A stretch of DNA of 64,000 nt from Acidobacteriota bacterium. GTDB taxonomy: Bacteria; Acidobacteriota; UBA6911; RPQK01; CBDAPI01. The position numbers and the translations under genes are program-made. Under the pieces are notes generated by a model that saw nothing but the letters and a program-made list of their open reading frames with translations, was not told the origin of the DNA and made no database searches. Shown piece by piece: positions 3,630-52,320 of the stretch (positions are counted from its first letter, which is position 1; every line of letters begins with the position of its first letter). The stretch is taken from positions 134,057 through 198,056 of the forward strand of contig CBDFLV010000002.1 in the NCBI GenBank assembly GCA_965249245.1, in the 5' to 3' direction.

Positions 3630-3662
3630 AACTTTTAACCTTCAACCTTCAACCTTCAACCC
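3630..3662. repeat. Tandem heptamer array (CCTTCAA x3, the reverse complement of GGTTGAA)
   Basis: aaccttcaaccttcaaccttcaaccc, abutting the left end of the IS element. Confidence 0.8.
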
Positions 3663-5038
3663 TAGCAGCCCGTGGCAGAAGTGCTTAATTGGGTCCGGAC
3701 ACCACCTGGAAAGGGCCCGATTGAAAGTTTTCCAATCAAACCTTCAAAGAAAGTGCTGATCCGTCTCCTCAGGCCCTTCCTCAGCCCGAAAAAGGCTAAC
3801 AAAGCGCAAAGAATCCGGGCGTGGAGGGCCCGGGGAGTCCCTGCGCCGAGTTTCTGGCGCATCACCATACCCAGGTTGAACGCACCGGCCTGAATCAGCA
3901 GTCTCTTGGCCACATTGTCGTGTCCCCTGACCTCGGTGCGGCGCATCCCCCCTGTCCGGTACAGATGAGCAAAGGATCTTTCCAGTTTTTCGCCCCGCCG
4001 TCTCAGTAACTCGCGGCCTCGCTCTCCCCGTATCCGTCTGCGGTTGGCATAGGTGGCATCTCGCCCCTCGATGTTGCCTTTCCACTTGCGTCTGCCCCGC
4101 TTCGGTTCCGAGATGTAACTGCGTATCTGCAGCGCTGCAAAATCCTTTACCGTCTCGGTGCTGTGATATCCCTTGTCGGCCACCACCTCGGCCATTTCCT
4201 TTTTTTGCCCCGTCGCCTCTTCAATGTTTTCGGCAGCACGAATCAGCGTCTCCTTCAGGGTCGTCGTGTCTCCTTTATCGGCTCCCTGTACCGTGACCGC
4301 CACAATCGCTCCCGTCTCCATGTCGATGGCATGCTCGGCCTTGTGGGCCAGGTGCGTTCGCCCGTCCTTCATCTTCGTAATGCGAGCGTCCGGATCGTGA
4401 GGATGTTTCCACTCTTTGTTGGAGCCTTTCTTCTTGCGTTTCCGGTCCGTACGAACCAGGTCTTCGCGGGTGGGCGTCTCGATTCCGGAAGCCTGAGCCA
4501 ATCCGGTTAAAAACTGGTTATAGTCTTCTCCCGTATCCCGTCGGATGATGGTGCGCATCGCCGCATTGGCTTCCAGCGTCGTCGCGTCGATCCCGATCGT
4601 CTTTCCCTTCAGCAGTTCCGATTCCGCCAGTCGCTCCAGCACCCAGCTGAACACCGCCGCATGGGTCTGCACATCGATTAATCTCCGGGTTCTCGATATC
4701 GTCGAGTGATCGGGTGGTGTCTCGCTCACTTTCAATCCCAAAAACTCTCTCAGGGCCAGTGAATCGGCCACTCTCCAGGCAATCCCTCGCTCCGCTCCGA
4801 TCCCTTCAAAATACCCCACCATCAACAGCCGAAAATACACTCCCGGCGCCACGCTCGGCCGCCCCATCTTCTCCGCGTAGAACTTCCCGCACAGCTCCTC
4901 TACGAAATCGTCAAAGCCGTGCTCACTCAATACCTCGTTGAGGGCTTCGTAGAATGGATGCCCAGGACTCCGCGCTAACTGGCTGCTGGCCACCCACAGA
5001 TCCGCTTGTCGCCGTCGCTTCTTCTTTCCCATTGCCAT
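3662..5038 (-). CDS. IS1182-family (IS5 superfamily) DDE transposase
   Basis: 458 aa with an N-terminal DUF772-like region, GIDATTLEANAAM, and a DDE region with ADKGYHS. Confidence 0.8.
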   Translation of the reverse strand: MAMGKKKRRRQADLWVASSQLARSPGHPFYEALNEVLSEHGFDDFVEELCGKFYAEKMGRPSVAPGVYFRLLMVGYFEGIGAERGIAWRVADSLALREFLGLKVSETPPDHSTISRTRRLIDVQTHAAVFSWVLERLAESELLKGKTIGIDATTLEANAAMRTIIRRDTGEDYNQFLTGLAQASGIETPTREDLVRTDRKRKKKGSNKEWKHPHDPDARITKMKDGRTHLAHKAEHAIDMETGAIVAVTVQGADKGDTTTLKETLIRAAENIEEATGQKKEMAEVVADKGYHSTETVKDFAALQIRSYISEPKRGRRKWKGNIEGRDATYANRRRIRGERGRELLRRRGEKLERSFAHLYRTGGMRRTEVRGHDNVAKRLLIQAGAFNLGMVMRQKLGAGTPRALHARILCALLAFFGLRKGLRRRISTFFEGLIGKLSIGPFPGGVRTQLSTSATGC

Positions 5039-5097
5039 GGGACCAGTGTAGTGTCTGAATGTGACCCCTACCCTCGACTTTCACCACAGGCTGCTAG
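3662..5097 (-). mobile_element. IS1182/IS5-like insertion sequence, about 1.44 kb
   Basis: Imperfect terminal inverted repeats CTAGCAGCCCGTGG (3662-3675) and CCACAGGCTGCTAG (5084-5097). Carries a single transposase gene and lies 66 bp from tRNA-Phe. Confidence 0.75.
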
Positions 5098-5832: not shown

Positions 5833-5835
5833 CGG

Positions 5836-5928
5836 GTTGCTGGTTGCTGGTTACTGGTTACTGGTTACTGGTTACTGGTTACTGGTTACTGGTTACTGGT
5901 TGAAAGTTGAAAGTTGAAGGTTGAAGGT
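5836..5928. repeat. Tandem heptamer array (CTGGTTA x7 then GTTGAAA/GTTGAAG units)
   Basis: ctggttgctggttactggttactggttactggttactggttactggttactggttgaaagttgaaagttgaaggttgaagg. Confidence 0.85.
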
Positions 5929-5937
5929 TCGTGGGCT

Positions 5938-6405
5938 GTGGAAGGTGGACTCCGATCACTTCGAACCGGGGGACAAACCGGTGTGGATCGGGCGGTGCTG
6001 GACGCGGCACTGGCGTCGGGCCTGGAGGTCACGGGCTGGTGCCCGAAGGGGCGAAGAGCCGAGGACGGCCCCCTGCATCACCGCTATCCTCTCGAAGAGA
6101 CACCTTCTGCAGATTACGCCCAGCGCACGGAGTGGAACGTGCGCGATTCGGATGGCACGCTGGCTCTCCTTCGCGACAAGTTGGATACCGGCACGGAACT
6201 CACCATCCGTCAGGCCAATCGGCAGTCCCGTCCGCTGCTGCTCATCGACCTGGAGGACCCCCTCGATGCCGCCACGGTCCAGGACTGGATCCGACGTTCG
6301 GGAGTTCAGCACCTGAACATAGCAGGACCGCGAGAAAGCCAGTCTCCTGGCATTTACGAAGCAGCTCGGCCTTTTCTGGAGAAGCTGTTCGTCCACCTTT
6401 TTTAG
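5938..6405 (+). CDS. SLOG-fold YpsA-like protein (family previously annotated as a putative molybdenum carrier protein)
   Basis: TGGQTGVDRAVLDAALASGLEVTGWCPKGRRAEDG matches the PF12694-type signature. The start is uncertain: the ORF-track TTG start lies inside the heptamer array, and the GTG at 5938 is preferred. Confidence 0.55.
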   Translation: MEGGLRSLRTGGQTGVDRAVLDAALASGLEVTGWCPKGRRAEDGPLHHRYPLEETPSADYAQRTEWNVRDSDGTLALLRDKLDTGTELTIRQANRQSRPLLLIDLEDPLDAATVQDWIRRSGVQHLNIAGPRESQSPGIYEAARPFLEKLFVHLF

Positions 6406-6435
6406 AACTTTCCCAGCTCCCCTCCATCTAAGTGA

Positions 6436-6618
6436 CTAGCCCGCATAATTCATAGGGTGCCGAAGCGAAGAGTCGCAAAGTCCGCGCTGGCAAGGCTTTA
6501 CGCGCGAGGGCCCCGCAGGCATAGTCGTGCACTATGCCGAGGAGCCCGAGTGGGGGTAACGCAGCCAGCGCGAGGCTTGGCGGCTCTGCAGCCGGCAGTT
6601 TATGAATTATGCGGGCTA
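6436..6618. repeat. MITE-like or structured-RNA-like repeat element, copy A (about 183 bp)
   Basis: Perfect 18-bp terminal inverted repeats TAGCCCGCATAATTCATA / TATGAATTATGCGGGCTA. The GC-rich core is about 80% identical to the second copy at 40790-40976 and contains the hairpin GGCATAGtcgtgcaCTATGCC and the inverted pair GCGCTGGC...GCCAGCGC. Confidence 0.7.
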
Positions 6619-6939
6619 GGGACCAGGCGATGTCCCGGGAAGCTGGCAGTGATTGCGAACGACTTCGGTTACAAGCGACCGGAGTCTGGCTCGAGAGGTG
6701 GGACAATGAAGAACGAAGCGAACAACGACCGAAAACTGCTCCCTTCGAAAGACTTGAGAAAGCCGCCCAGCTGGACGTTATCCAAGTCGGACCGGCGATT
6801 TCTCCACTCCTGCAACATCTCTCCCTGAGGTTACAGGTTGAAGGTTGATCGGAGACTTTCCGGGTCCCGGGGGAGGAGAGTTCAAAGTACCAGGTCCGAG
6901 ATCTCAGACCTGGACGAGAAACTTTCAACTTTTAGCGCG

Positions 6940-7698: not shown

Positions 7699-7965
7699 TC
7701 TTCTCTCACTCGATCACGAATGAGCTGCACTAGTCCCAAAATAAGCGTGTTTGCACATCATCTACTGTAGCGACTCGTTTTGCCAAGATCGGTTGCTCAT
7801 TTGAGGTTCAATCAGACTTGCGCCGGACTCCGGCTGTGCCGGGAAGCAGTTTGGTTGACCTCAGGCCGCCACGACGCGTTGACAATGGCCCTGAAAGTCG
7901 GTTTTCAGACAGACCCCTCCCCGATCGGCTCCATTTGTCGTCTTGTCGAAGCGGCTTGCGATTCG

Positions 7966-8535
7966 TCAGCCAAATTGCTGGTGTTTCAGCCACAGATTCC
8001 CCTCGATCAACAAACGGGTCCAATCGTTAACAGTGAGCAGTCGATACAATAAACGCCGTCCCGTTGTCACGATCTGGCAAGGCAGTCCGATCACACAGGT
8101 GACAAAGCGCCGGAACTCCATCCGGATCAGGCGTCGGGCCCCCAGTCTTGCAGGCAAAAGCAGGCCCAGCCAAACCTTGAGGTTCCAGGCTTGGGCGGCA
8201 ATCACCAGGTAAGTCCAGTTTGCGACCAGGGTATCGGCCGGCATGCGCAGAGCCTGAACGCCGTTCTTGAGCTGCTCGATCACGTTTTCCTGATTGCAGC
8301 GCCCGTTGCTTTCCAAAACCACCTGTTGTGTCGACAGTTCCTTGACCGGCACGTTCGTGACATAGAACAGATAGCGCTGCTGATCAAACAGCCGCTTTTG
8401 ACCCTTTTCGACCTCGATCCTCTTGCGCAGGATGATCATTCGGTAGGTGCCTTTAGCTCGGGCCGGTCGGTACTCGATCTCCGTCACATGCTCACTCAAC
8501 AAGTTCAGGTTTTTGTAGCCCCGCTCTCGCACCAA
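7966..8535 (-). CDS. Transposase, C-terminal fragment (DDE domain with a GxAEN..IEQLKNG-type motif)
   Basis: 189 aa containing RCNQENVIEQLKNGVQALRMP, typical of IS1380/IS4-type DDE transposases. Together with 8505..9317 it makes about 450 aa, so the gene is probably a pseudogene or carries a sequencing frameshift. Confidence 0.6.
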   Translation of the reverse strand: MVRERGYKNLNLLSEHVTEIEYRPARAKGTYRMIILRKRIEVEKGQKRLFDQQRYLFYVTNVPVKELSTQQVVLESNGRCNQENVIEQLKNGVQALRMPADTLVANWTYLVIAAQAWNLKVWLGLLLPARLGARRLIRMEFRRFVTCVIGLPCQIVTTGRRLLYRLLTVNDWTRLLIEGNLWLKHQQFG

Positions 8536-9317
8536 CGATCGAAGTTGCGGGTCAGGGAAAAGTCCGTGTCTCCCCGCAATCTCACTTGCTCAAAGCCGCC
8601 TCTTCTGACCAGTTTCACGGCTCGATCGATCCACGCCACCGCTCCTTCGTGCGACGGTCGGCTGGCCGGCCGATTGAACGTGTACAAGACCTCGTTGGTT
8701 TCGGCCAGACTCACCACCAAGGGTCCATACCCCCATTGTCCCTTGTAGTTGAGATCCATCCCTTCCTTGCAACACCCCGTGGTCTCGGCCGTCGTGCCGT
8801 CCACGTCGATCGTGGCTCGCTTGCCCATCTCCGCTGCTTGGCTTTGCCACACCTGCAGACGGCTTTCGTTGAAGGCTTCTTGCAGGGCCAAGACATCCTC
8901 TTGCTTGAAACGCCTGAGAAAGTCCCCTTCCGTACTCGGTGCCGGGATCTTGCGCGCTCCTACACTCTCCAGATAGCTGACATCCTCGCGCCGTGACTTT
9001 ACATCCTGCAGGCACACTCCCCCACTCATCACGTTGTAGATCAGATTCAAGACGTGGTCCGACTCCCGGTAGGGAAGGTGCCGCTTCAACACTCGCACAC
9101 GTTCGTCGATCCTCTCCGCCACCCTCAAGCGCTTGACCAACTGAACAATCAGCCCCAGACCTCCACTACTCACCCCTCCCATACGGCTCGAGACGTCGTA
9201 GACAATATTGCCTCCTCTCAGCACCCGTCCCCCACTCTTAGGCCGCCAACTTCGATCCAGCCTTCGCTCTATTTCCTCTTGGCGTTTGTTGATAATCTCG
9301 ATATGCTTTCTATTCAC
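8505..9317 (-). CDS. Transposase, N-terminal fragment (a frameshift separates it from 7966..8535)
   Basis: 270 aa ending RWCESGATKT. It overlaps the downstream ORF by 31 bp in another frame at an A-rich stretch (reverse complement gggctacaaaaacc). Confidence 0.6.
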   Translation of the reverse strand: MNRKHIEIINKRQEEIERRLDRSWRPKSGGRVLRGGNIVYDVSSRMGGVSSGGLGLIVQLVKRLRVAERIDERVRVLKRHLPYRESDHVLNLIYNVMSGGVCLQDVKSRREDVSYLESVGARKIPAPSTEGDFLRRFKQEDVLALQEAFNESRLQVWQSQAAEMGKRATIDVDGTTAETTGCCKEGMDLNYKGQWGYGPLVVSLAETNEVLYTFNRPASRPSHEGAVAWIDRAVKLVRRGGFEQVRLRGDTDFSLTRNFDRWCESGATKT

Positions 9318-9599
9318 CTGAAACGCCTCCTCTTGGGATTGTTCTGGGTCTTTTTCTGAACCTCAGAATACCCGTCAGGACTGGCGTTTCAGGCTTTTTT
9401 CCACCTCTGGGTATACACCCCATGTACTTATTTTGGGACTAGTGCACTGTCCGGAAAGTTCACGCCGCTACTTCGGGCGTCTTTTCGCCGACAGCTTTGT
9501 TGCGCTTCCTCGAAAGACTCCCGGCCTTCCTGCGTCGCGCGCCTCACTGTCGACGAAAATCCATCCAGAATTAACACCGCGAACTTCCCGGACAGCACA

Positions 9600-13077: not shown

Positions 13078-13107
13078 GGTTGAAGGTTGAAAGTTGAAAG
13101 TTGGAAT
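13078..13107. repeat. Tandem heptamer array (GGTTGAA/AGTTGAA)
   Basis: ggttgaaggttgaaagttgaaagttggaat. Confidence 0.8.
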
Positions 13108-13195
13108 GTGGGAGGCGCCTTGGCGCGGCGACCTGAAATCGTGAACGTGACCACCCGGCGTTCGCGGCCTGAGGCCCCTCCCACTTCCAGGATCC

Positions 13196-13225
13196 CCAGA
13201 ACCTAGAACCCAGAACCCAGAACCC
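13196..13225. repeat. Tandem heptamer array (CCAGAAC/CTAGAAC)
   Basis: ccagaacctagaacccagaacccagaaccc. Confidence 0.8.
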
Positions 13226-20029: not shown

Positions 20030-20593
20030 TCACTCAATCTGAAACAACAGCTGGCCACCGTCGATTGAAGCGTCGACGGCCACGTTGCAAAGGGTCACGG
20101 TACCGGCTTTTGGAGACTTCAATTCGTTTTGCATTTTCATCGACTCAACGATGGCCAGCCCTTCGCCGATCTCGACGTCGTCGCCGGGGCTCTTGAGGAC
20201 AGCAACTACTTTTCCCGGCATCTGCGCCTTGACCTGGGCGATCCCCTGAGCCGCAAGAACCGCGGAATTTCCCTTTCCCAGCCGTCTGGGATCCTGGATC
20301 TGGAACTCCAACACCTGATCACGCCAGGCCACAGTCCGGCTCGTGTCCCGACCGGATACGACCAGATGTTCGACGCGTTCGCCCACCCGAAGTACCAGTT
20401 GCTCCCCCTCCCGGGCCAGCAGCTCGACGCGGCTGAATCTCCCGTTCAATCCAACTCGGAAATCGGTGGCTGAGATCCGATCGATATGAACCTCGTTCTG
20501 GATGTCGCCGTAGCGTACTTTAAACTTCACTTCTTGAAATCCCAGGAACCTCTTCGCAATCCTCGCAGACGGGCGTCCTGCTTCCACTGGCTG
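20030..20593 (-). CDS. Biotin carboxyl carrier (BT plus biotinyl) domain portion of the same carboxylase alpha chain
   Basis: Biotinylation motif IVESMKMQNEL. The frame is open upstream to VEAGRPS (GTG). Probably the C-terminal part of a frameshifted PccA/AccA-type gene. Confidence 0.7.
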   Translation of the reverse strand, partial: QPVEAGRPSARIAKRFLGFQEVKFKVRYGDIQNEVHIDRISATDFRVGLNGRFSRVELLAREGEQLVLRVGERVEHLVVSGRDTSRTVAWRDQVLEFQIQDPRRLGKGNSAVLAAQGIAQVKAQMPGKVVAVLKSPGDDVEIGEGLAIVESMKMQNELKSPKAGTVTLCNVAVDASIDGGQLLFQIE

Positions 20594-22062
20594 GCGGGGC
20601 TGCAGGCCAGGGTCGAAGGCGTTTGGATTGCTTTGAAATAGTAATCAAGGGCCACACCGATCACCGCCGGGTCCACTTCATCGTCCAGGTTGTTGGCGAG
20701 AGCGTCCAGCAGCGCGTGTTCCTCCAGGAACTCAGTGCTCAGCTGCCCCTTCAAGAATTCCGGATGACGGAACAGGACTCGGAAGAAAGGAATTGTAGTG
20801 GCCACCCCGGCAACCTTGTACTCATGAAGGGCACGCGTCATTCTTTGCAGAGCCTCAGCCCTGTCTCCGCCCCACGCCACCAGCTTTGAGATCAGAGGAT
20901 CGTAATCGACCGGGATGGTGGCACCTTGAAAGACTCCACTATCGTTCCGAATGCCGGGGCCTGAAGGCTCCAGCAGGGTGAAAACTGTGCCTGGTGATGG
21001 AAAAAAATCATTGCCAGGATCTTCAGCATAGACCCGGCACTCCACGGCTGCCCCTCGCGGAGCCAGTCTTTCCTGCTGTAGCTTCAGCGGCTCTCCATTC
21101 GCTATGCGAATCTGTTCTTTGACCAGGTCAACGCCATAGACCATCTCCGTCACCGGGTGCTCAACCTGAAGCCTTGCGTTGATCTCCAGGAAGTAGAAGG
21201 GAGGCACCTCCTCAGTACTGCTCCCATCCACCAGAAACTCAACCGTACCTGCGTTGAAGTACCCGGATGCCCGGGCTGCTGAGAGTGCAGCCTCGCCCAG
21301 CGCCTCCCTGAACGCGACTCCGACTCGGGGAGAGGGACACTCTTCAACAATTTTCTGATGCCGGCGCTGGATCGAACATTCTCTTTCCCCCAGGTGAACG
21401 AGGTTTCCGAGTTGGTCTCCCAGAATTTGAACCTCAATATGACGCGGTCTGGGAACAACCTTTTCGAGAAACACCCGGGAGTCCCCAAAGGAGGCCTCTG
21501 CCTCTCCTCTAGTCAGGACGAAAGCCTGCTTCAATTCCTCCGCCGACCTGATTAGACGCATACCCTTGCCACCTCCGCCGGCTCGCGCCTTGAGCATGAC
21601 CGGATAACCAAGCGTGCCTGCTACCCTCACCGCCTCATCCAGCGCCTCAAGGCTCCGGTCACTTCCCGGAATAACCGGCACTCCGGCACCCTCAACGGTC
21701 CGTCGGGCGTGCACTTTGTCTCCCATCATCTCTATGCTTTCCGCGGAGGGACCGATGAAGGTGATGCCGGCTTCACTGCAGGCCCGGACAAAAAGGGGAT
21801 TCTCGCTCAGGAAGCCGTACCCCGGGTGAATAGCGTCCGCCTCGAGTGACTTGGCCGCTGCCAGGATTCTTTCGATCGAAAGATAGCTTTCAGCGGCTGG
21901 CGCCTCCCCAATGAAGCAGACCGAGTCGGCCAGTCGGACGGAGAGAGAACCTCTGTCAGCCGAGGAGTACACGACGGCCGGTGAGATGCCCATCTCCCGG
22001 CAGGCCCGGATGATCCTGACGGCGATTTCTCCGCGGTTGGCGATTAGAATTCGAGAAAACAT
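20527..22062 (-). CDS. Acetyl/propionyl-CoA carboxylase alpha chain, biotin carboxylase (ATP-grasp) portion
   Basis: 511 aa running from MFSRILIANRGEIAVRIIRA to EFLEEHALL. The last 60 bp overlap the next ORF in a different frame. Confidence 0.8.
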   Translation of the reverse strand: MFSRILIANRGEIAVRIIRACREMGISPAVVYSSADRGSLSVRLADSVCFIGEAPAAESYLSIERILAAAKSLEADAIHPGYGFLSENPLFVRACSEAGITFIGPSAESIEMMGDKVHARRTVEGAGVPVIPGSDRSLEALDEAVRVAGTLGYPVMLKARAGGGGKGMRLIRSAEELKQAFVLTRGEAEASFGDSRVFLEKVVPRPRHIEVQILGDQLGNLVHLGERECSIQRRHQKIVEECPSPRVGVAFREALGEAALSAARASGYFNAGTVEFLVDGSSTEEVPPFYFLEINARLQVEHPVTEMVYGVDLVKEQIRIANGEPLKLQQERLAPRGAAVECRVYAEDPGNDFFPSPGTVFTLLEPSGPGIRNDSGVFQGATIPVDYDPLISKLVAWGGDRAEALQRMTRALHEYKVAGVATTIPFFRVLFRHPEFLKGQLSTEFLEEHALLDALANNLDDEVDPAVIGVALDYYFKAIQTPSTLACSPASQWKQDARLRGLRRGSWDFKK

Positions 22063-22085
22063 GTTGGAGCCAGATCGCGGCCGAT

Positions 22086-22152
22086 TCAGGCCGGATCCCC
22101 TTCAGGCCGGATCCCCCTCAGGCCGGATCCCCTTCAGGCCGGATCCTCCTCA
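22086..22152. repeat. 16-mer x4 tandem repeat (CAGGCCGGATCCCCTT) filling the pccB-pccA intergenic spacer
   Basis: caggccggatcccctt caggccggatccccct caggccggatcccctt caggccggatcctcct, ending at the pccB stop codon. Confidence 0.85.
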
Positions 22153-23715
22153 GAGAGGGATATTGCCGTGTTTCTTCGGGGGATTGCTGTCGCGCTTTGT
22201 ATTGGCCATGTCGAGCGCTGAGATCAGTTTGCTTCTGGTTTCTCGGGGATTGATAACGGCGTCGATAAAGCCTCGCTCGGCAGCATCATATGGATTGGCG
22301 AATTTGGCCCGGAACTCGTCGGTCTTCTGTTGCTTGAACGCTTCTGCATTCTCTGCCCCAGCCAGTTCGCGCCGGAAAAGGATCTCAACTGCACCCTGTG
22401 ACCCCATCACAGCTATCTCAGCTGTAGGATAAGCGTAGTTCATGTCGGCTCGAATGTGCTTCGAAGCCATCACACAGTACGCACCTCCGTACGCCTTCCG
22501 GGTAATGAGCGTAATCTTCGGGACGGTGGCCTCGGCAAAGGCATAGAGCAACTTGGCTCCGTGTCGGATAATCCCGTTGTGCTCCTGATCAACACCGGGC
22601 AGAAAACCCGGAACATCCTCAAAGATGATCAAGGGAATGTTGAACGCATCGCAGAAACGGACAAACCGTGCTCCCTTGACTGACGAGTTGATGTCCAGAG
22701 TACCTGCCAACACATCCGGCTGGTTTGCCACCAACCCGACGGATTCTCCATTCAACCGGGCAAAGCCGACGACGATGTTGGGAGCGAAGTCAGCCTGGAT
22801 CTCGAAGAAGTGCCCATCATCGACCACCGCCCCAATGACTCGCTTGATGTCATAAGGCTGGTCCGGTTCACTCGGAACCAGGTGATCCAGATCGGGCTCG
22901 ACTCTGTCGATTGGATCCTCGCACTCTTTTCTGGGTGGAGACTCCAAGTTGTTGGAAGGCAGGAAGGAGAGCAGCTCCCTGGTCTGCGCGAGACAGCTTT
23001 CGTCGTCAGGCGCCACCAGGTGCGCGATCCCACTTTTGGAGGAATGAGTGGCGGCACCTCCCAGCTCGTCTTTGGAAACCTCCTCGCCCGTCACGGTTCG
23101 AATCACATCAGGACCGGTAATGAACATGTAGCTGCTGTTCTGCACCATGAGAACGAAATCGGTAATGGCCGGGGAATAGACAGCTCCTCCCGCGCAGGGA
23201 CCCATGATGGCTGAGATCTGAGGCACGACACCGCTGGCCAGCGTATTTCTGAGGAAGATATCGGCGTAGCCGGCCAGGCTGACAACCCCTTCCTGAATCC
23301 TGGCTCCTCCACTGTCGTTCAACCCGATGATGGGAGAACCCATCTTCACGGCCAGATCCATCACCTTGCAGATCTTGGCGGCGTAGGTCTCCGAAAGGCT
23401 CCCTCCAAAGACCGTAAAGTCCTGGGCGAAAACGAACATGTTGCGCCCGTCGATGCGGCCATACCCGGTGACTACGCCGTCCCCGGGGATGCGCTTGTCT
23501 GCCATCTCGAAATCGGTGCAGCGATGCACAACGAACTTGTCGATCTCTTCGAAACTCCCCTCATCGAGAAGAAAATCGATTCGTTCGCGGGCGGTCAGCT
23601 TTCCGGCGGCATGCTGCCTTGCGACGCGAGCTTCACCCCCGCCGGCCTCAGCCCTGCGGTGACGCTGCTCCAACTCCTCAAGCTTGCGATCGAGTTCCGA
23701 TTCGAGCTGTTTCAT
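22150..23715 (-). CDS. pccB: Propionyl-CoA / acyl-CoA carboxylase carboxyltransferase beta subunit
   Basis: 521 aa; both carboxyltransferase N- and C-subdomains are present (GGARIQEG etc.). Confidence 0.9.
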
Positions 23716-27874: not shown

Positions 27875-27927
27875 GGTTCCAAGTTCCACGAACCTTTAAC
27901 CTTTAACCTTCAACCAGTAACCAGCAA
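27875..27927. repeat. Tandem heptamer array (GTTCCAA, CCTTTAA, CCTTCAA, CAGTAAC units)
   Basis: ggttccaagttccacgaacctttaacctttaaccttcaaccagtaaccagcaac, lying between the convergent gene ends of thrC and the nucleosidase. Confidence 0.8.
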
Positions 27928-30773: not shown

Positions 30774-30829
30774 GATTGAAGATTGAAGATTGAAGATTGA
30801 AAATGATTCGCTTCGCTCATTGCGGTTCC
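30774..30829. repeat. Heptamer array (GATTGAA x4) followed by the conserved motif ATTCGCTTCGCTCATTGCGGTTCC
   Basis: gattgaagattgaagattgaagattgaaaatgattcgcttcgctcattgcggttcc. Confidence 0.8.
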
Positions 30830-38594: not shown

Positions 38595-38790
38595 TCGGGG
38601 TAGCGAGAGTGCAAACCAGCCTCTGCGCCGGGCTGAGGCTCTCAAGGACTACCTGGTGAAGGAACGAGGCATCCATCCTGGTCGGATCGAGACAGCCAGT
38701 GCCGGGGAGTCACAGCCGTTCTCGGACAACGATACAGCGGAGGGGCGCAAAGCCAATCGTCGCGGCGAGGTTGAGCTACAAGTGCGTTAG
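38593..38790 (+). pseudogene. Out-of-frame OmpA C-terminal domain remnant belonging to paralog 2
   Basis: The +1 frame encodes DDRGSESANQPLRRAEALKDYLVKERGIHPGRIETASAGESQPFSDNDTAEGRKANRRGEVELQVR. This is colinear with the tail of paralog 1 but lacks about 40 residues of the N-terminal half of the OmpA domain. Confidence 0.6.
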
Positions 38791-38807
38791 TCGCGGGGGA
38801 AGTACTA

Positions 38808-38846
38808 GAATAGAGCGGGGCCTTGGAAGGCCACGGCTCTTTTTTC
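38808..38846 (+). terminator. Putative rho-independent terminator
   Basis: GC-rich hairpin GGCCTTggAAGGCC followed by ACGGCTCTTTTTTCG, just before the next start codon. Confidence 0.35.
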
Positions 38847-38848
38847 GT

Positions 38849-40762
38849 ATGAATCGTCCAGCTCTGTGTCTGCTGATCTATTTCCTGGCGGCCCTTCCGT
38901 CCCCGCGCGCTTCCCAGCGTTTTGAGGTGCTGGGACCCTACGGAGGCGATGTCCGCTCGCTTACCGTGCACCCTCAGTCCCCGCAACGTTTCTTCCTGGG
39001 AACGGCAGACGGTCAGATTTACATCTCTCGAAACGCGGGAGATTTGTGGGAAAAACTTAGCCCTGGATTGAGCCGACGGAACCTGGTCGTCGACAACCTG
39101 GTCTTCCACCCTTCGAGCCCTGGCGTTCTCTATGCGGCGTGTTGGGAATTGAGCAGTTCCGAGGGGTTGCTCTACGTGACGCACGACGCAGGCAGTTCCT
39201 GGAAGACAGTTGATCTGGGCCGGTTTTCGAGCCGCATCCGCGCCATTTCGATTGCGCCGTCGGAACCACAGGTGCTGGCGCTGGGCATCTCCGAAGGGGT
39301 CATTTTGAGTGCAGACGAAGGCCGCTCCTGGCAACGCATCACCCGGGGGTACAAGAGCCTTCACAATGTTGAGTCCCTGGCCTTCGACCCGCTGGATTCC
39401 GAAGTTCTGTACGTAGGAACATGGCGATTGGGCTGGAAGACGATCGATCGAGGGCGAAACTGGGTTGCGATCCACAACGGGATGCATTTCGACAGCGACA
39501 TGTTTGCCCTGCTGGTCAATCCCTCCAGTCCGGACGTGCTTTATGCGAGTGCGTGCACCGGGGTCTATCGGTCTCTCAACGGTGGAGCTCAGTGGGTAAA
39601 GCTCAGTAACGGTCTTCCCAAAGAAGCCAGGCGAACTCGATCGCTACATTTTGATCCAACCGACCCTCGAGTGGTATTCGCCGGTACAACCGTAGGCCTT
39701 TTCAGGTCCACTGATGGAGGCAACTCATGGGAACAACTGCTGAAAGGGGAGGTGATCAACGCGGTCTCCATTCATCCCGCCGACTCCAATGTGATTCTGG
39801 CGGCCGCCGATGATGTTGGTATTCTCCGCAGTCGAGACGGGGGCGTTTCCTTTGAATCCGCCAATCAGGGCTTTGTGCATCGCCAGATTCAGGCCCTGGC
39901 ATCCCATCCTGGCAACCCTGACACGCTCTTCGCGGCGGTGGCTTCCGATCGGGCCCACGGTGGATTCTTTCGCACCCGCGATTCCGGAAGGGCCTGGGAA
40001 CGTGCCAATGAGGGCTTGGATGGAGATCATCCCGTCCGCGGAGTGCGCCAGATTCTACCCTCGCCCGAGGGGGACGAAGTCCTCCTGGTTCTCCGGGACC
40101 AGATCCGGCGTCTGACCCCGGATGACGGCTGGCAGACCGTATTGAAACCTGGTAAATTGACGATTCACGATGCTGCCTTCGCGGGGCTCGAAAGTGACCG
40201 GGTCGCTATCGGTACGCCCTCCGGGGTCGTTCTCCTCCACCTCGACACCGGCAAGCTTGCCCCTTCGATCATACCGGTCTACGAGGGTCCCGTCTGGGCC
40301 ATGGCCTCCGCCCCCTCTGGATCCATATTCGCCGGTGGCAACACGGGTGTATTTCGGAGTGACGACCGGGGTGGGAGTTGGATCATTAAGGTCACAGGAC
40401 TGCCCCCCGTGGCCGTGCGGCGCCTTGTTCGCTCTGCCGAGGTCCTGTTGGCGGCTACCGACCAGGGACTCTTCCTGAGCCGTGACAACGCAGAGAGCTG
40501 GTTGGCCAGGGGCCTTGCAGGAGCCGATCTGTTCACCGCGGCTGTCAGTCCTCGCGATCCTGACTGGCTCGTGGCAACCGACAAGACGGGGCTCTTTCTG
40601 TACGAGAGTTTCGACGGCGGCGGCAACTGGACCACGCATGAACCTCACCGCTCGAGTCGCATTCACCACTTGGCTTTCGCTCTGGATGGACGTCTTTGGG
40701 CGGGAAGCCTGACCGAAGGAGTGTACCTGCTTCACCCACCGTCGCTCCAGATTGAAAATTGA
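38849..40762 (+). CDS. BNR/Asp-box repeat beta-propeller protein (Ycf48-like/sialidase-like), secreted
   Basis: Signal peptide MNRPALCLLIYFLAALPSP and multiple S.DGG.SW-type motifs (SxDxGxxW): THDAGSSW, SADEGRSW, SLNGGAQW, STDGGNSW, TRDSGRAW, SDDRGGSW, SFDGGGNW. The ORF-track start at 38699 is an upstream read-through. Confidence 0.7.
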   Translation: MNRPALCLLIYFLAALPSPRASQRFEVLGPYGGDVRSLTVHPQSPQRFFLGTADGQIYISRNAGDLWEKLSPGLSRRNLVVDNLVFHPSSPGVLYAACWELSSSEGLLYVTHDAGSSWKTVDLGRFSSRIRAISIAPSEPQVLALGISEGVILSADEGRSWQRITRGYKSLHNVESLAFDPLDSEVLYVGTWRLGWKTIDRGRNWVAIHNGMHFDSDMFALLVNPSSPDVLYASACTGVYRSLNGGAQWVKLSNGLPKEARRTRSLHFDPTDPRVVFAGTTVGLFRSTDGGNSWEQLLKGEVINAVSIHPADSNVILAAADDVGILRSRDGGVSFESANQGFVHRQIQALASHPGNPDTLFAAVASDRAHGGFFRTRDSGRAWERANEGLDGDHPVRGVRQILPSPEGDEVLLVLRDQIRRLTPDDGWQTVLKPGKLTIHDAAFAGLESDRVAIGTPSGVVLLHLDTGKLAPSIIPVYEGPVWAMASAPSGSIFAGGNTGVFRSDDRGGSWIIKVTGLPPVAVRRLVRSAEVLLAATDQGLFLSRDNAESWLARGLAGADLFTAAVSPRDPDWLVATDKTGLFLYESFDGGGNWTTHEPHRSSRIHHLAFALDGRLWAGSLTEGVYLLHPPSLQIEN

Positions 40763-40789
40763 AAATTATTCGCCTCGCTCATTGCGGCT
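40750..40789. repeat. Heptamer array (GATTGAA/AATTGAA) plus the conserved motif ATTCGCCTCGCTCATTGCGGCTCC
   Basis: cagattgaaaattgaaaattattcgcctcgctcattgcggctcc. The array supplies the last codons (LQIEN, stop) of the upstream gene. Confidence 0.8.
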
Positions 40790-40976
40790 CCTTAACCTGG
40801 GAAATTCATAAGTTTTCGAAGCGAAGGGCCGCAAGCGCCGCGCTGGCAAGGCTTTACCTCCGAGGGCACCGCAGGCATAGTCGTGACTCTGTCGAGGAGC
40901 CCGAGGAGGGGGAACGCAGCCAGCGCGGATGATGGGGGCGCTGCAGCCGACAACTTATGAATTTTCCGGGTTAAGG
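40790..40976. repeat. MITE-like or structured-RNA-like repeat element, copy B (about 187 bp)
   Basis: Terminal inverted repeats CCTTAACCTGGGAAATTCATAAG / CTTATGAATTTTCCGGGTTAAGG. The core is homologous to copy A (GAAGCGAAG...GCGCTGGCAAGGCTTTAC...CCGCAGGCATAGTCGTG...CGAGGAGCCCGAG...AACGCAGCCAGCGCG...CTGCAGCCG). Confidence 0.7.
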
Positions 40977-41019
40977 GCGGGGTTGCTCACAGCCAGATCG
41001 GAACTCGAAACAGGGGCAT

Positions 41020-41052
41020 CAACTTTCAACCTTCAACTTTAAACTTTAAACC
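41020..41052. repeat. Tandem heptamer array (CAACTTT, CAACCTT, AAACTTT)
   Basis: caactttcaaccttcaactttaaactttaaacc. Confidence 0.8.
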
Positions 41053-42017
41053 TAGTGGTTGGCCGGAACGACGCGGGTCTTGGAAAGATGGTCGTGCCAG
41101 CAGAGTTGTCGCCGGTCAAAGAGAGCCCAGAGCAGTCCAACCAGGCTGGCCGTCACGGCCAAGAACGACAATACCCGTAAGACTATGTCGGAGAGCCTCG
41201 GCCTCTTCCGTTCCTCCCCCACCAATGATAACTCCGTCGCCAGCATGCCCAGCGTCTGGCCTGAGAGGTAGAGCAGGAAGGTCGAGCTGAAGAGAAAGAA
41301 CGCTCCCGCAGTCATAAGAGTCTCGCTCAACAGCATCTCCGACATCACGCCGGCTCCGGTAGCCAGGGAAGCCACCAGGACAGTGCTGCCTCCGGCCACC
41401 ACGGCCGCCAGCACATCAATCAGACCGCTCAGCATGCGGGAAAAGAGAATCTCCGGAAAGACCGTCACTTCAATTCGATCAGGCTGCTCGGGTTGAGATC
41501 TGAGTGTCAGACTCTTCTCCATCCGGGGCCGGTCCAGTCGCAATCGACCTTGACGCTTGTCAAGAGCCGCTTTTCCGCCAGTCTTCACGACAGGTCGAAT
41601 CACCGGTTTCTCGCGCGGTGCCGCCCGGCCTTCTGGTCGATACGTGAGGATCCTTTCGCCGGGGGCCGAATTGCGCCCGCTCATTCGATAAAGAAAGGCG
41701 CTCGAATCCGGAGCTGAGCCTCGATTCACACCTGATTCCCGGCTCTCAGATTCCGCCAGTGAGCGGCTTAGGGGCTCTAGGGCGGTCTCCCGGGTTGCCG
41801 GCTCTTCGGAGGGAAAGGGAGCGCTCCTGCGCTTGTGACGGTCCAGTTTCTCTAGAATCTCCTGCTTCCACTCGGAAGCCTGGTCGGCACTGTCGGATCG
41901 ACTCGAGAACTGGTAGGGGATTACCGGAGGGAAGGGGCCTCTGGTGGCGGCATCCTCGCTCCGACACTTCGGACATTGACCATTCAGAAGGGGAGTCGAA
42001 CAGCGAGCACAAACCAC
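41052..42017 (-). CDS. RDD-family membrane protein with an N-terminal zinc ribbon
   Basis: N-terminal CARC...CPKC, a long low-complexity linker, then C-terminal TM helices with the RDD motif (LWALFDRRQLCWHDHLSKTRVV). Confidence 0.65.
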   Translation of the reverse strand: MVCARCSTPLLNGQCPKCRSEDAATRGPFPPVIPYQFSSRSDSADQASEWKQEILEKLDRHKRRSAPFPSEEPATRETALEPLSRSLAESESRESGVNRGSAPDSSAFLYRMSGRNSAPGERILTYRPEGRAAPREKPVIRPVVKTGGKAALDKRQGRLRLDRPRMEKSLTLRSQPEQPDRIEVTVFPEILFSRMLSGLIDVLAAVVAGGSTVLVASLATGAGVMSEMLLSETLMTAGAFFLFSSTFLLYLSGQTLGMLATELSLVGEERKRPRLSDIVLRVLSFLAVTASLVGLLWALFDRRQLCWHDHLSKTRVVPANH

Positions 42018-47118: not shown

Positions 47119-47173
47119 TGTTCCAACGTTCCAAGTTCCAAGTTCCACTTTGCGCGCTCATTGGCATTCGCGC
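47119..47173. repeat. Heptamer array (GTTCCAA x3-4) plus a TCGCTCATTG-type motif variant
   Basis: gttccaacgttccaagttccaagttccac tttgcgcgctcattggcattcgcgcc. Confidence 0.7.
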
Positions 47174-52229: not shown

Positions 52230-52320
52230 AAGGAATCGCAATAAGCGAAGCGACTAATTTGGAATTTGGAATTTGGAATTTAAAGTTCCCTTCGCTCCAT
52301 TTTCTTTCGCGAAAGGAACC
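52230..52320. repeat. Motif (reverse complement) GGAATCGCAATAAGCGAAGCGACT, then heptamer array (AATTTGG x4), then a second motif-like segment
   Basis: ggaatcgcaataagcgaagcgactaatttggaatttggaatttggaatttaaagttcccttcgctccattttctttcgcgaaaggaacc. Confidence 0.7.

Follow-up and report, generated by a model that had tools for sequence, protein, structure and literature searches.

We analyzed a 64,000-nucleotide (64-kb) stretch of DNA from an uncultured Acidobacteriota bacterium (contig CBDFLV010000002.1 of assembly GCA_965249245.1), hereafter the window, to which all coordinates refer unless another contig is named; L-numbers designate the loci and contigs fetched for comparison. It contains two copies, A and B, of a palindromic element, and the comparison of sequences indicates that copy B is a non-autonomous transposon, a transposable element of the miniature inverted-repeat kind (MITE), inserted recently at a TTAA between two convergent genes. 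We hold with high confidence, as a joint statement, that the MITE was inserted with duplication of TTAA and that the layers of repeats stacked around it are independent of each other. The element has the structural features of a MITE, namely small size, terminal inverted repeats (TIRs), a 4-bp duplication, dispersed copies and presence/absence polymorphism, and it is classified as such because of the duplications, the dispersed copies and the empty sites in relatives. In the sequence of events that we propose, a transposase provided in trans would cut a TTAA just past an older 24-nt motif and insert the element, and the TTAA would be duplicated.

The junction lies between a gene for a BNR/Sortilin-Vps10-type beta-propeller (38699 to 40762, plus strand; Pfam PF15902, E = 1.8e-33), whose protein is found with identical sequence on four ENA contigs, and a convergent gene for an RDD-family membrane protein (41052 to 42017, minus strand; Pfam PF06271, E = 3.3e-10). 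The last five BNR codons (LQIEN) and the stop are encoded by a heptamer array, GATTGAA AATTGAA AATT (40750 to 40767, plus strand), delimited by Tandem Repeats Finder (TRF). Directly after it come the 24-nt motif ATTCGCCTCGCTCATTGCGGCTCC (40768 to 40791, plus strand), the left TTAA (40792 to 40795), the 175-bp copy B (40796 to 40970, plus strand), recognized by its inverted repeat, fold, covariation and further copies, and the right TTAA (40971 to 40974). The next 44 nt (40975 to 41018) are ancestral intergenic spacer, common to relatives without the MITE as judged by the alignment with L093 and L086. A second array (41019 to 41051, minus strand; TRF), also present in L093 and L086, reads GTTTAAA GTTTAAA GTTGAAG GTTGAAA GTTGA in the sense of the RDD gene and begins directly past its stop (41052 to 41054). 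The initial annotation, made from the letters and open reading frames (ORFs) alone, had described this layout, and open reading frame positions and strands, translation and TRF agree with it: copy B sits between convergent gene ends, the array writes the end of the BNR protein, the motif is right behind that array and is followed by the left inverted repeat (arms 40790 to 40818 and 40948 to 40976, 29 nt, 90% complementary), a period-7 array adjoins the opposite-strand RDD stop, and a second copy (A, 6440 to 6615) is found elsewhere in the window.

The same annotation had proposed comparing the presence or absence of each module in related genomes. The names of BNR homologues at about 50% identity point to the phylum Acidobacteriota. 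Close BNR homologues on long ENA contigs range from 98% down to 71% identity, and the comparison found the MITE absent from the closest relative with arrays and motif kept, and various insertion sequences (ISs) in the spacers of others. That closest relative, L093 (BNR protein 98% identical), keeps the two arrays and the 24-nt motif along with one TTAA (...ATTGCGGCTCC TTAA GGGCGGGG...), and lacks the element. In its wider context, GAAAATT is followed by ATTCGCTTCGCCCATTGCGGCTCC TTAA GGGCGGGGTTGCTCACAG and then by the same downstream array and RDD gene. The window and L093 thus have the same sequence bar a few single-nucleotide differences and a 179-nt insert, which is the 175-bp MITE plus one TTAA. 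Copy A is also absent from a strain-level contig, L101 (1115 to 1200, against 6400 to 6660 of the window), in which a single CTAG is kept. L101 does lack 7 nt, GGACCAG, present to the right of copy A in the window, and this difference beside the CTAG of an otherwise empty site speaks against a simple insertion; it could be an unrelated slippage indel or the footprint of an excision.

The empty site also corrects the boundaries of the element. The 29-nt arms overshoot it, the outer 6 nt of each being the TTAA duplication plus CC or GG. The CC and GG around TTAA are already found in the L093 empty site, hence they are old spacer; because they and the TTAA belong to the ancestral spacer and the target duplication, the true element runs from 40796 to 40970, with TIRs of 23 nt (40796 to 40818 and 40948 to 40970) and CC..GG ends. 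The alignment of the junctions of the copies gave the conserved ends CCCGCAT-AATTCATA...TATGAATT-ATGCGGG for subfamily A and CC(C/T)GG(A/G)A-AATTCATA...TATGAATT-TTCCGGG for subfamily B, so that the short termini, CCCGC.../...GCGGG and CC(C/T)GG.../...CCGGG, flanked by 4-bp duplications, are conserved over about 40 copies. Immediately outside the CC..GG ends stand direct repeats of four bases: three loci have CTTG/CTTG, others CTCA/CTCA, CAAG/CAAG or TTAG/TTAG, and in the window copy A has CTAG/CTAG and copy B TTAA/TTAA. Several copies have one or two mismatches between the left and right duplication. The non-palindromic tetranucleotides among them show that the inverted repeat does not simply continue outward and that these are true target duplications. 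Copy A (6440 to 6615, plus strand; 6436 to 6619 with its CTAG duplications at 6436 to 6439 and 6616 to 6619) is located between convergent cpYpsA-like and PP2C genes. It has the same orientation as copy B, to which it is 83% identical, with nine compensatory pair changes. The 175 to 176 bp between the duplications are too small for a transposase gene. Two other classes of element were considered and discarded: a TA duplication of the Tc1/IS630 type is ruled out by the copies with CTTG, CTCA or CAAG, and repetitive extragenic palindromes and the mosaic elements built from them (REP/BIME; mobilized by RAYT/Y1 transposases) are palindromes of 20 to 40 nt that carry a conserved tetranucleotide at the 5' end and lack a target duplication, whereas the element has 175 bp and 4-bp duplications.

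Dispersed copies were recovered by scanning JGI metagenome contigs with a 19-base conserved pattern. This returned 45 loci. About 42 are true copies on distinct contigs, which come almost all from one marine metagenome (Ga0310123); many were at contig ends, and their flanks were unrelated. Two more copies are in the window and one is in a relative. The metagenome copies form two subfamilies (94 to 99% identical within, about 80% between) that match copies A and B, with about 30 A-type and 12 B-type members, each 94 to 99% identical to its window copy. The copy in a relative (L088:13629-13802) represents a third subfamily, C, about 74% identical to A and B. As expected from a repeat, two independent short-read ENA assemblies break at the identical base inside copy B. 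Scans of two other collections gave only chance matches, 30 hits (some 19 to 20 nt matching) in the genome contig collection with an 18-mer from the conserved core, and six in viral contigs with a two-block pattern.

Some copies carry insertions of their own. Two A-type copies at different loci (L067:145-355 and L084:1117-1330) have in common a 30-nt hairpin insertion (CTCCTTCGCCAAGGCTTCGGAGGGCAGG) in the 3' arm, which means that variants with nested hairpins are propagated. At three independent loci the hairpin apex of an A-type MITE is interrupted (...GGCATAGTCGTG and CACTATGCC... on either side); the example covering the insert is L075:106-2085 (minus strand), and the same junction is found in L045, L055:1113-1137 and L062:1689-1724. 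The insert opens with a 31-nt hairpin resembling a terminator (GAGAACCTGGAAATGGTTCTCTTTCTTGAGG); a complete group II intron (Rfam RF02005, 76.9 bits, and RF00029, 44 bits) with a 440-aa reverse transcriptase/maturase (TIGR04416, 342 bits) comes next. No copy with the 31-nt hairpin and without the intron was seen among the MITE loci examined. The hairpin is either part of the intron or of a MITE variant, and the composite either transposes as a unit or results from homing of the intron into a MITE variant.

As to the enzyme that moves the MITE, its ends and duplications point to a transposase of the IS1380 family as the probable source. piggyBac transposons make TTAA duplications and have CCC..GGG ends. 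The enzyme would belong to their bacterial relatives, the IS1380 family, with CC..GG ends and 4-bp YTAR/TTAA duplications; IS1380 serves as the prokaryotic outgroup of piggyBac (PMC10813416). A candidate of this kind, IS-X, is a 1.65-kb insertion sequence found in the BNR-RDD spacer of related genomes, coding for a 445-aa transposase of the IS1380 family (NCBIfam NF033539, 380 bits). Its ends are CCCGGATTATGCA...TGCATAATCCGGG, and every intact copy has a 4-bp duplication, CTAG, CTAA or TTAG. One end of the subfamily C MITE, CCCGGATTATTCATA, is identical to the right end of IS-X at 13 of 15 positions, and in L088 this MITE stands back to back with IS-X, with one CTAG in common. The window has an IS1380-family insertion sequence too (7734 to 9438, minus strand; TIR TCCCAAAATAAG...; CTAG duplication at 7730 to 7733 and 9439 to 9442). 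Its transposase is split by an internal deletion of about 150 nt, and is intact (503 aa; annotated PF13701/PF01609) in the conspecific contigs L097 to L099; a near-identical IS copy in L086 scores 275 bits to the NCBIfam IS1380 model. A relative has a copy 97% identical to this window IS; the genes of that relative reach only about 88% identity.

Several observations weaken the assignment. No insertion sequence closely matching the A and B ends was found, the IS1380-partner ends in question being CCCGCATAATTCATA or CCCGGAAAATTCATA. IS-X has been seen only in related genomes, its ends match those of A and B at about 10 of 15 positions, and past the terminal 15 nt it shares nothing with the MITE. 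The window's own IS1380-family element has different ends (TCCCAAAATAAG), although the host is sampled here by 64 kb. Searches (tblastn) with the transposases of IS-X and IS-W found no autonomous parent in the metagenome MITE loci, and shortened MITE copies such as L053 lead into ordinary genes, not into a transposase. Finally, an IS5-like insertion sequence in the window also makes CTAG duplications, so the duplication alone cannot name the family. This element (3666 to 5093, minus strand; CTAG duplication at 3662 to 3665 and 5094 to 5097) codes for a 458-aa DUF772 + DDE_Tnp_1 transposase and stands directly after an AACCTTC array; it is missing from the conspecific L097 to L099, where the empty site reads ttcaaccCTAGccacccg, and by this comparison its insertion is very recent. 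IS5-group elements make 4-bp duplications of the CTAG type. A transposase of this family could then have moved the MITE, the more so as the window holds such an IS that has been recently active. We find this unlikely, since the IS5-like ends (CAGCCCGTGGCAGAAG.../...CACCACAGGCTG) are unlike those of the MITE, while those of IS-X resemble them (13/15 with subfamily C) and have the CCCGG terminus in common.

The fold of the element raises a different question, that of its possible function as RNA. A 196-nt region folds at -112.6 kcal/mol (z = -8.2 against shuffles). Over 21 copies of four sequence types, the consensus forms one rod with 60 pairs and small internal loops, and 97.1% of the cells are paired. 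Twenty pairs have changed on both sides, versus 8.2 ± 1.5 in shuffles (0/500) and at most 7 in slid controls. Covariation reaches past the transposase-binding ends into the apex, with GGCATAGT/ACTATGCC in A versus GTCGTACT/AGTACGTC in C. G·U pairs occupy 99 cells and recur at nine positions, while the mirror A·C pairs occupy 8 cells and none recurs; the plus strand folds 17 to 19 kcal/mol better than the minus strand in both window copies. Covariation this strong, together with strand-specific G·U pairs and so low a folding energy, would be the signature of a structured noncoding RNA gene, vertically inherited in two paralogous copies and not mobile at all. Such a gene is highly improbable here. 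It would leave neither target-site duplications nor close relatives with a single TTAA at the empty site, and it does not account for about 40 copies in unrelated contexts, some truncated and some with nested insertions. Rfam gave no support either: at the gathering score, Rfam 15 matched only two tRNAs in the window and left the element unmatched, and a relaxed search of 40700 to 41100, with E up to 10, returned nothing credible.

A mobile MITE may still act once it is transcribed, and by analogy with other families an RNA-level role is a possibility that we advance tentatively. The inserted element would be read as the 3' untranslated region (UTR) of the BNR transcript, folding into a rod-like hairpin of about 60 pairs, and this RNA form may be a substrate of RNase III or a stabilizer of the 3' end, as in Correia and ERIC elements. 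A gene for RNase III is present in the window, identified by synteny with the gene called in L086. Relative to the nearest ORF upstream, 16 of 22 copies have their plus strand in its direction and 6 in the opposite one, and among copies within 60 nt of a stop the figures are 9 versus 2, both from crude ORF calls. With the strand-specific G·U pairs and the covariation, this bias would fit a constraint acting on the RNA. Three considerations temper this reading: the orientation bias is weak (p = 0.05) and rests on those crude calls, strand-biased C-to-T mutation of the master copies could underlie the G·U asymmetry in place of selection on RNA, and covariation in a full-length palindrome can be produced by repair within a DNA hairpin.

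The initial annotation had also suggested a composite terminator or insulator region, and we found no support for it: there is no U-tract, no terminator or promoter consensus, and the closest relative does without the element. As an explanation, it would make arrays, motif and hairpin one selected functional unit, a bidirectional terminator/insulator, and some facts agree with it. A long hairpin does lie between convergent genes, and some termination signal is to be expected there, since MITE-free relatives have an ordinary GC-rich hairpin in the spacer (AGTGGGAG...CTCCCACT followed by TTTCC in L086, GCAGAGCCCTCGG...CCGAGGGCTCTGC in L091); terminator roles of MITEs have been deemed conceivable (PMC10969869). 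However, the plus-strand sequence past the hairpin is TTAAGGGCGGGG and the minus-strand one GGAGCCGCAATG, neither with a T/U run, and a consensus scan of 40500 to 41300 found no intrinsic terminator or promoter. L093, the closest relative, has neither the MITE nor a GC-rich hairpin. Moreover, the other MITE copies lie in unrelated flanks, the displayed parts of which have no arrays or motif, and arrays and motif occur elsewhere without the MITE. A single functional unit is accordingly improbable.

The surrounding repeats have a history of their own. The window has 12 period-7 arrays. Eight or nine of them are in sense orientation no more than 30 nt from the stop of an ORF of 120 aa or longer, and in that sense they read (G/A)TTNNNN. 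The arrays include those at 2765-2812, 3637-3661, 5835-5929, 13079-13103, 13195-13225, 27891-27922, 30774-30801, 40750-40767, 41019-41051, 47120-47147 and 52256-52281. One of the nine stop-proximal arrays abuts an IS transposase that came later. The array at the BNR 3' end is present in all the relatives, at the same position and with a variable unit (ATTGAAA, ATTAAGA, GTTCCAC, GTTCCTC, GTTGCAG/GTTCCAG or GGTTACA); those with a different unit are L086, L088, L090, L091, L094, L095 and L096. In several relatives the ORF reads into the array, which then encodes C-terminal residues. Arrays of this kind mark gene 3' ends in general, in the window and its relatives, and are older than the MITE insertion; the BNR array in particular predates the MITE because it is present in L093, with the empty site.

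The 24-nt motif (ATTCGCYTCGCTCATTGCGGYTCC) has three copies in the window at up to 3 mismatches (30806-30829 and 40768-40791 on the plus strand, 52232-52255 on the minus strand), with 0 expected from 100 shuffles. It is also found in relatives (L093:7920, L090:11988, L089:9055 and L088:14956, the last two on the minus strand), including L093 without the MITE, and in all of these and the three window loci it stands immediately 3' of a heptamer array. Only the window lineage has array and motif at the DUF2062-TPR junction. The motif had no Rfam match. It is not palindromic, which excludes a REP-like element, and a small ORF (GGAG, 5 nt and ATG on the reverse strand) was discarded because ATG is replaced by ATA in the third copy. 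An IS110-family element of L090 starts within a few bases past the motif. By eye, without a formal scan, the displayed flanks of the 40 or so other MITE copies showed neither arrays nor motif. In our opinion the gene-end arrays, the motif that caps them and the nested group II intron are more unusual than the MITE itself. One could go further and suppose that the sense arrays (G/A)TTNNNN, often capped by the motif, form an uncharacterized 3'-UTR RNA system, and that the MITE, co-opted as a 3'-end element, has been kept preferentially in the orientation that gives the stable RNA hairpin with G·U pairs. The arrays could then be a putative protein-binding platform for termination or for control of the mRNA 3' end, and the MITE hairpin would be a candidate processing or stabilizing element whose apex is also a landing pad for the group II intron. 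We consider such a system rather doubtful. A tandem repeat of another kind, four 16-nt units (TTCAGGCCGGATCCCC) at 22085-22153, lies between the minus-strand ORFs 20527-22062 and 22150-23715.

The dense stacking of repeats had led to the suggestion of a hot spot for recombination or insertion. The part that stands is that the spacer has been hit repeatedly in relatives, by elements of the IS1380, IS110, IS256 and IS3 families; the part that does not is a joint causation by the stacked repeats, since arrays and motif are older and none were seen by eye in the displayed flanks of the other MITE copies. We compared eleven related haplotypes besides the window. The ancestral spacer, of about 60 to 150 bp, is empty in six of them (L093, L086/L087, L091, L095 and L096), and in the window it is occupied by the MITE. 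Right after the array, at C/TTAG, IS-X was found flanked left and right by CTAG in L088/L089 and by TTAG in L094; this points to one tetranucleotide having been hit twice, independently. In L092, IS-X is in a CTAG that overlaps the RDD stop, a position that is empty in L091, with an identical BNR protein, and the spacer of L090 contains IS110, IS256 and IS3 elements. In L088 (11975 to 13806) an intact IS-X is followed by the subfamily C MITE and then by unrelated genes, so that synteny with the RDD gene is lost, while L089 (5820 to 7636), from the same sample and with the same BNR protein, has a decayed IS-X and keeps the RDD gene; the break in L088 is either an IS-mediated rearrangement or an assembly artifact or chimera. 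The related genomes are IS-rich overall and other spacers in the same 20 kb have been hit too, so that we read the junction, qualitatively a hot spot, as a permissive, target-rich site and not as a programmed one.

Target composition helps to understand why. With 57% G+C, the 64 kb contain 44 CTAG, 40 TTAA, 35 TTAG and 29 CTAA, versus about 500 TCGA or GATC. In non-coding DNA, TTAA reaches five times its density in coding DNA (2.25 versus 0.45 per kb) and CTAG twice (1.29 versus 0.62), TCGA having about 8 per kb. Three MITE copies have a duplication whose TAG serves as stop codon to the ORF upstream. Insertions cluster at gene ends because YTAR/TTAA targets are rare and concentrated at stops and AT-rich spacers, and because insertions between convergent genes are harmless. 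The stacking is thus made up of several layers: each of the convergent genes brings its own older 3' heptamer array, the 24-nt motif travels with the arrays, elements targeting YTAR/TTAA are channeled to stop codons and the AT-rich spacers at gene ends, and insertions there, breaking nothing, persist. The alternative is that arrays and motif actively attract insertions, through DNA structure or as targets of a guide RNA, which would make the site a hot spot programmed by its sequence. IS110-family elements do pick specific repeated targets. The window MITE and the IS110 of L090 both begin within 4 nt past the 24-nt motif, and the IS5-like IS at 3666 and IS-X in L088 and L094 begin 0 to 7 nt past an array. 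Yet no array or motif was seen by eye at the junctions of the other MITE copies in the flanks displayed, the nearest YTAR tetranucleotide explains the insertion points, and the IS110 boundaries are only approximate; we give active attraction little credence. The stacking at this junction is genuine but largely ordinary.

Among known systems, the closest in architecture are the Correia elements of Neisseria and the ERIC elements of enterobacteria, with which this family shares a length of 100 to 200 bp, TIRs, a short duplication, intergenic copies by the tens to hundreds, frequently at the 3' ends of genes, and a whole-length imperfect palindrome whose co-transcription gives a long RNA hairpin. 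RNase III cleaves the transcripts of Correia elements, and mRNA decay is influenced by ERIC (PMC10969869). The MITE described here, known from its sequence alone, differs from them in sequence and host phylum, in the 4-bp YTAR/TTAA duplication instead of TA, and in its likely IS1380-family partner. With the IS1380 family (e.g., ISEcp1) and piggyBac, it has in common the CC..GG termini and a 4- to 5-bp duplication, the TTAA of copy B being the hallmark of piggyBac, and with the IS-X of related genomes the near-identical terminal 15 nt (in subfamily C) and the same YTAR duplications. Unlike IS1380 elements, it encodes no transposase and shares only their termini. The BOX, RUP and SPRITE clusters of Streptococcus pneumoniae are also bunches of different small intergenic repeats, sometimes nested (PMC10969869), and their counterpart here would be the MITEs with nested hairpins or a nested group II intron and the MITE back to back with an IS; the elements and the phylum are others, and a rare tetranucleotide target explains part of the clustering. 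As for the arrays, the GGGAATC heptamers of Xanthomonas are near or overlapping stops, in the same intergenic region in related species, and variable in length and sequence (PMC4692102). The arrays here are likewise stop-proximal, at the same locus in relatives and variable in unit and length, and the STRR heptamers of cyanobacteria are tandem 7-nt intergenic units as well. In contrast to both, the units here are AT-rich, do not form G-quadruplexes and change between relatives (ATTGAAA, GTTCCAC, GTTCCTC, GTTGCAG). The TAACTGA repeats of Beggiatoaceae sit upstream of start codons (PMC4679880), unlike these arrays.

None of the papers that a text search on MITEs and IS1380 returned describes an IS1380-derived MITE, and in a term check the 2024 review of prokaryotic MITEs contained neither IS1380 nor Acidobacteri. 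The case provides an example of a MITE insertion resolved to the base in an uncultured acidobacterium, and of a MITE family that its termini and duplications appear to tie to IS1380-type (piggyBac-related) transposition, a link absent from that review as far as the term check reaches and from the other papers returned by the search. It is also a warning for annotation: hairpins of this sort are to be taken for repeats, at which short-read assemblies break, and not for RNA genes or terminators. It offers a mechanistic account of how unrelated mobile elements would pile up at the gene ends of a GC-rich genome, where their rare targets are found at stop codons.

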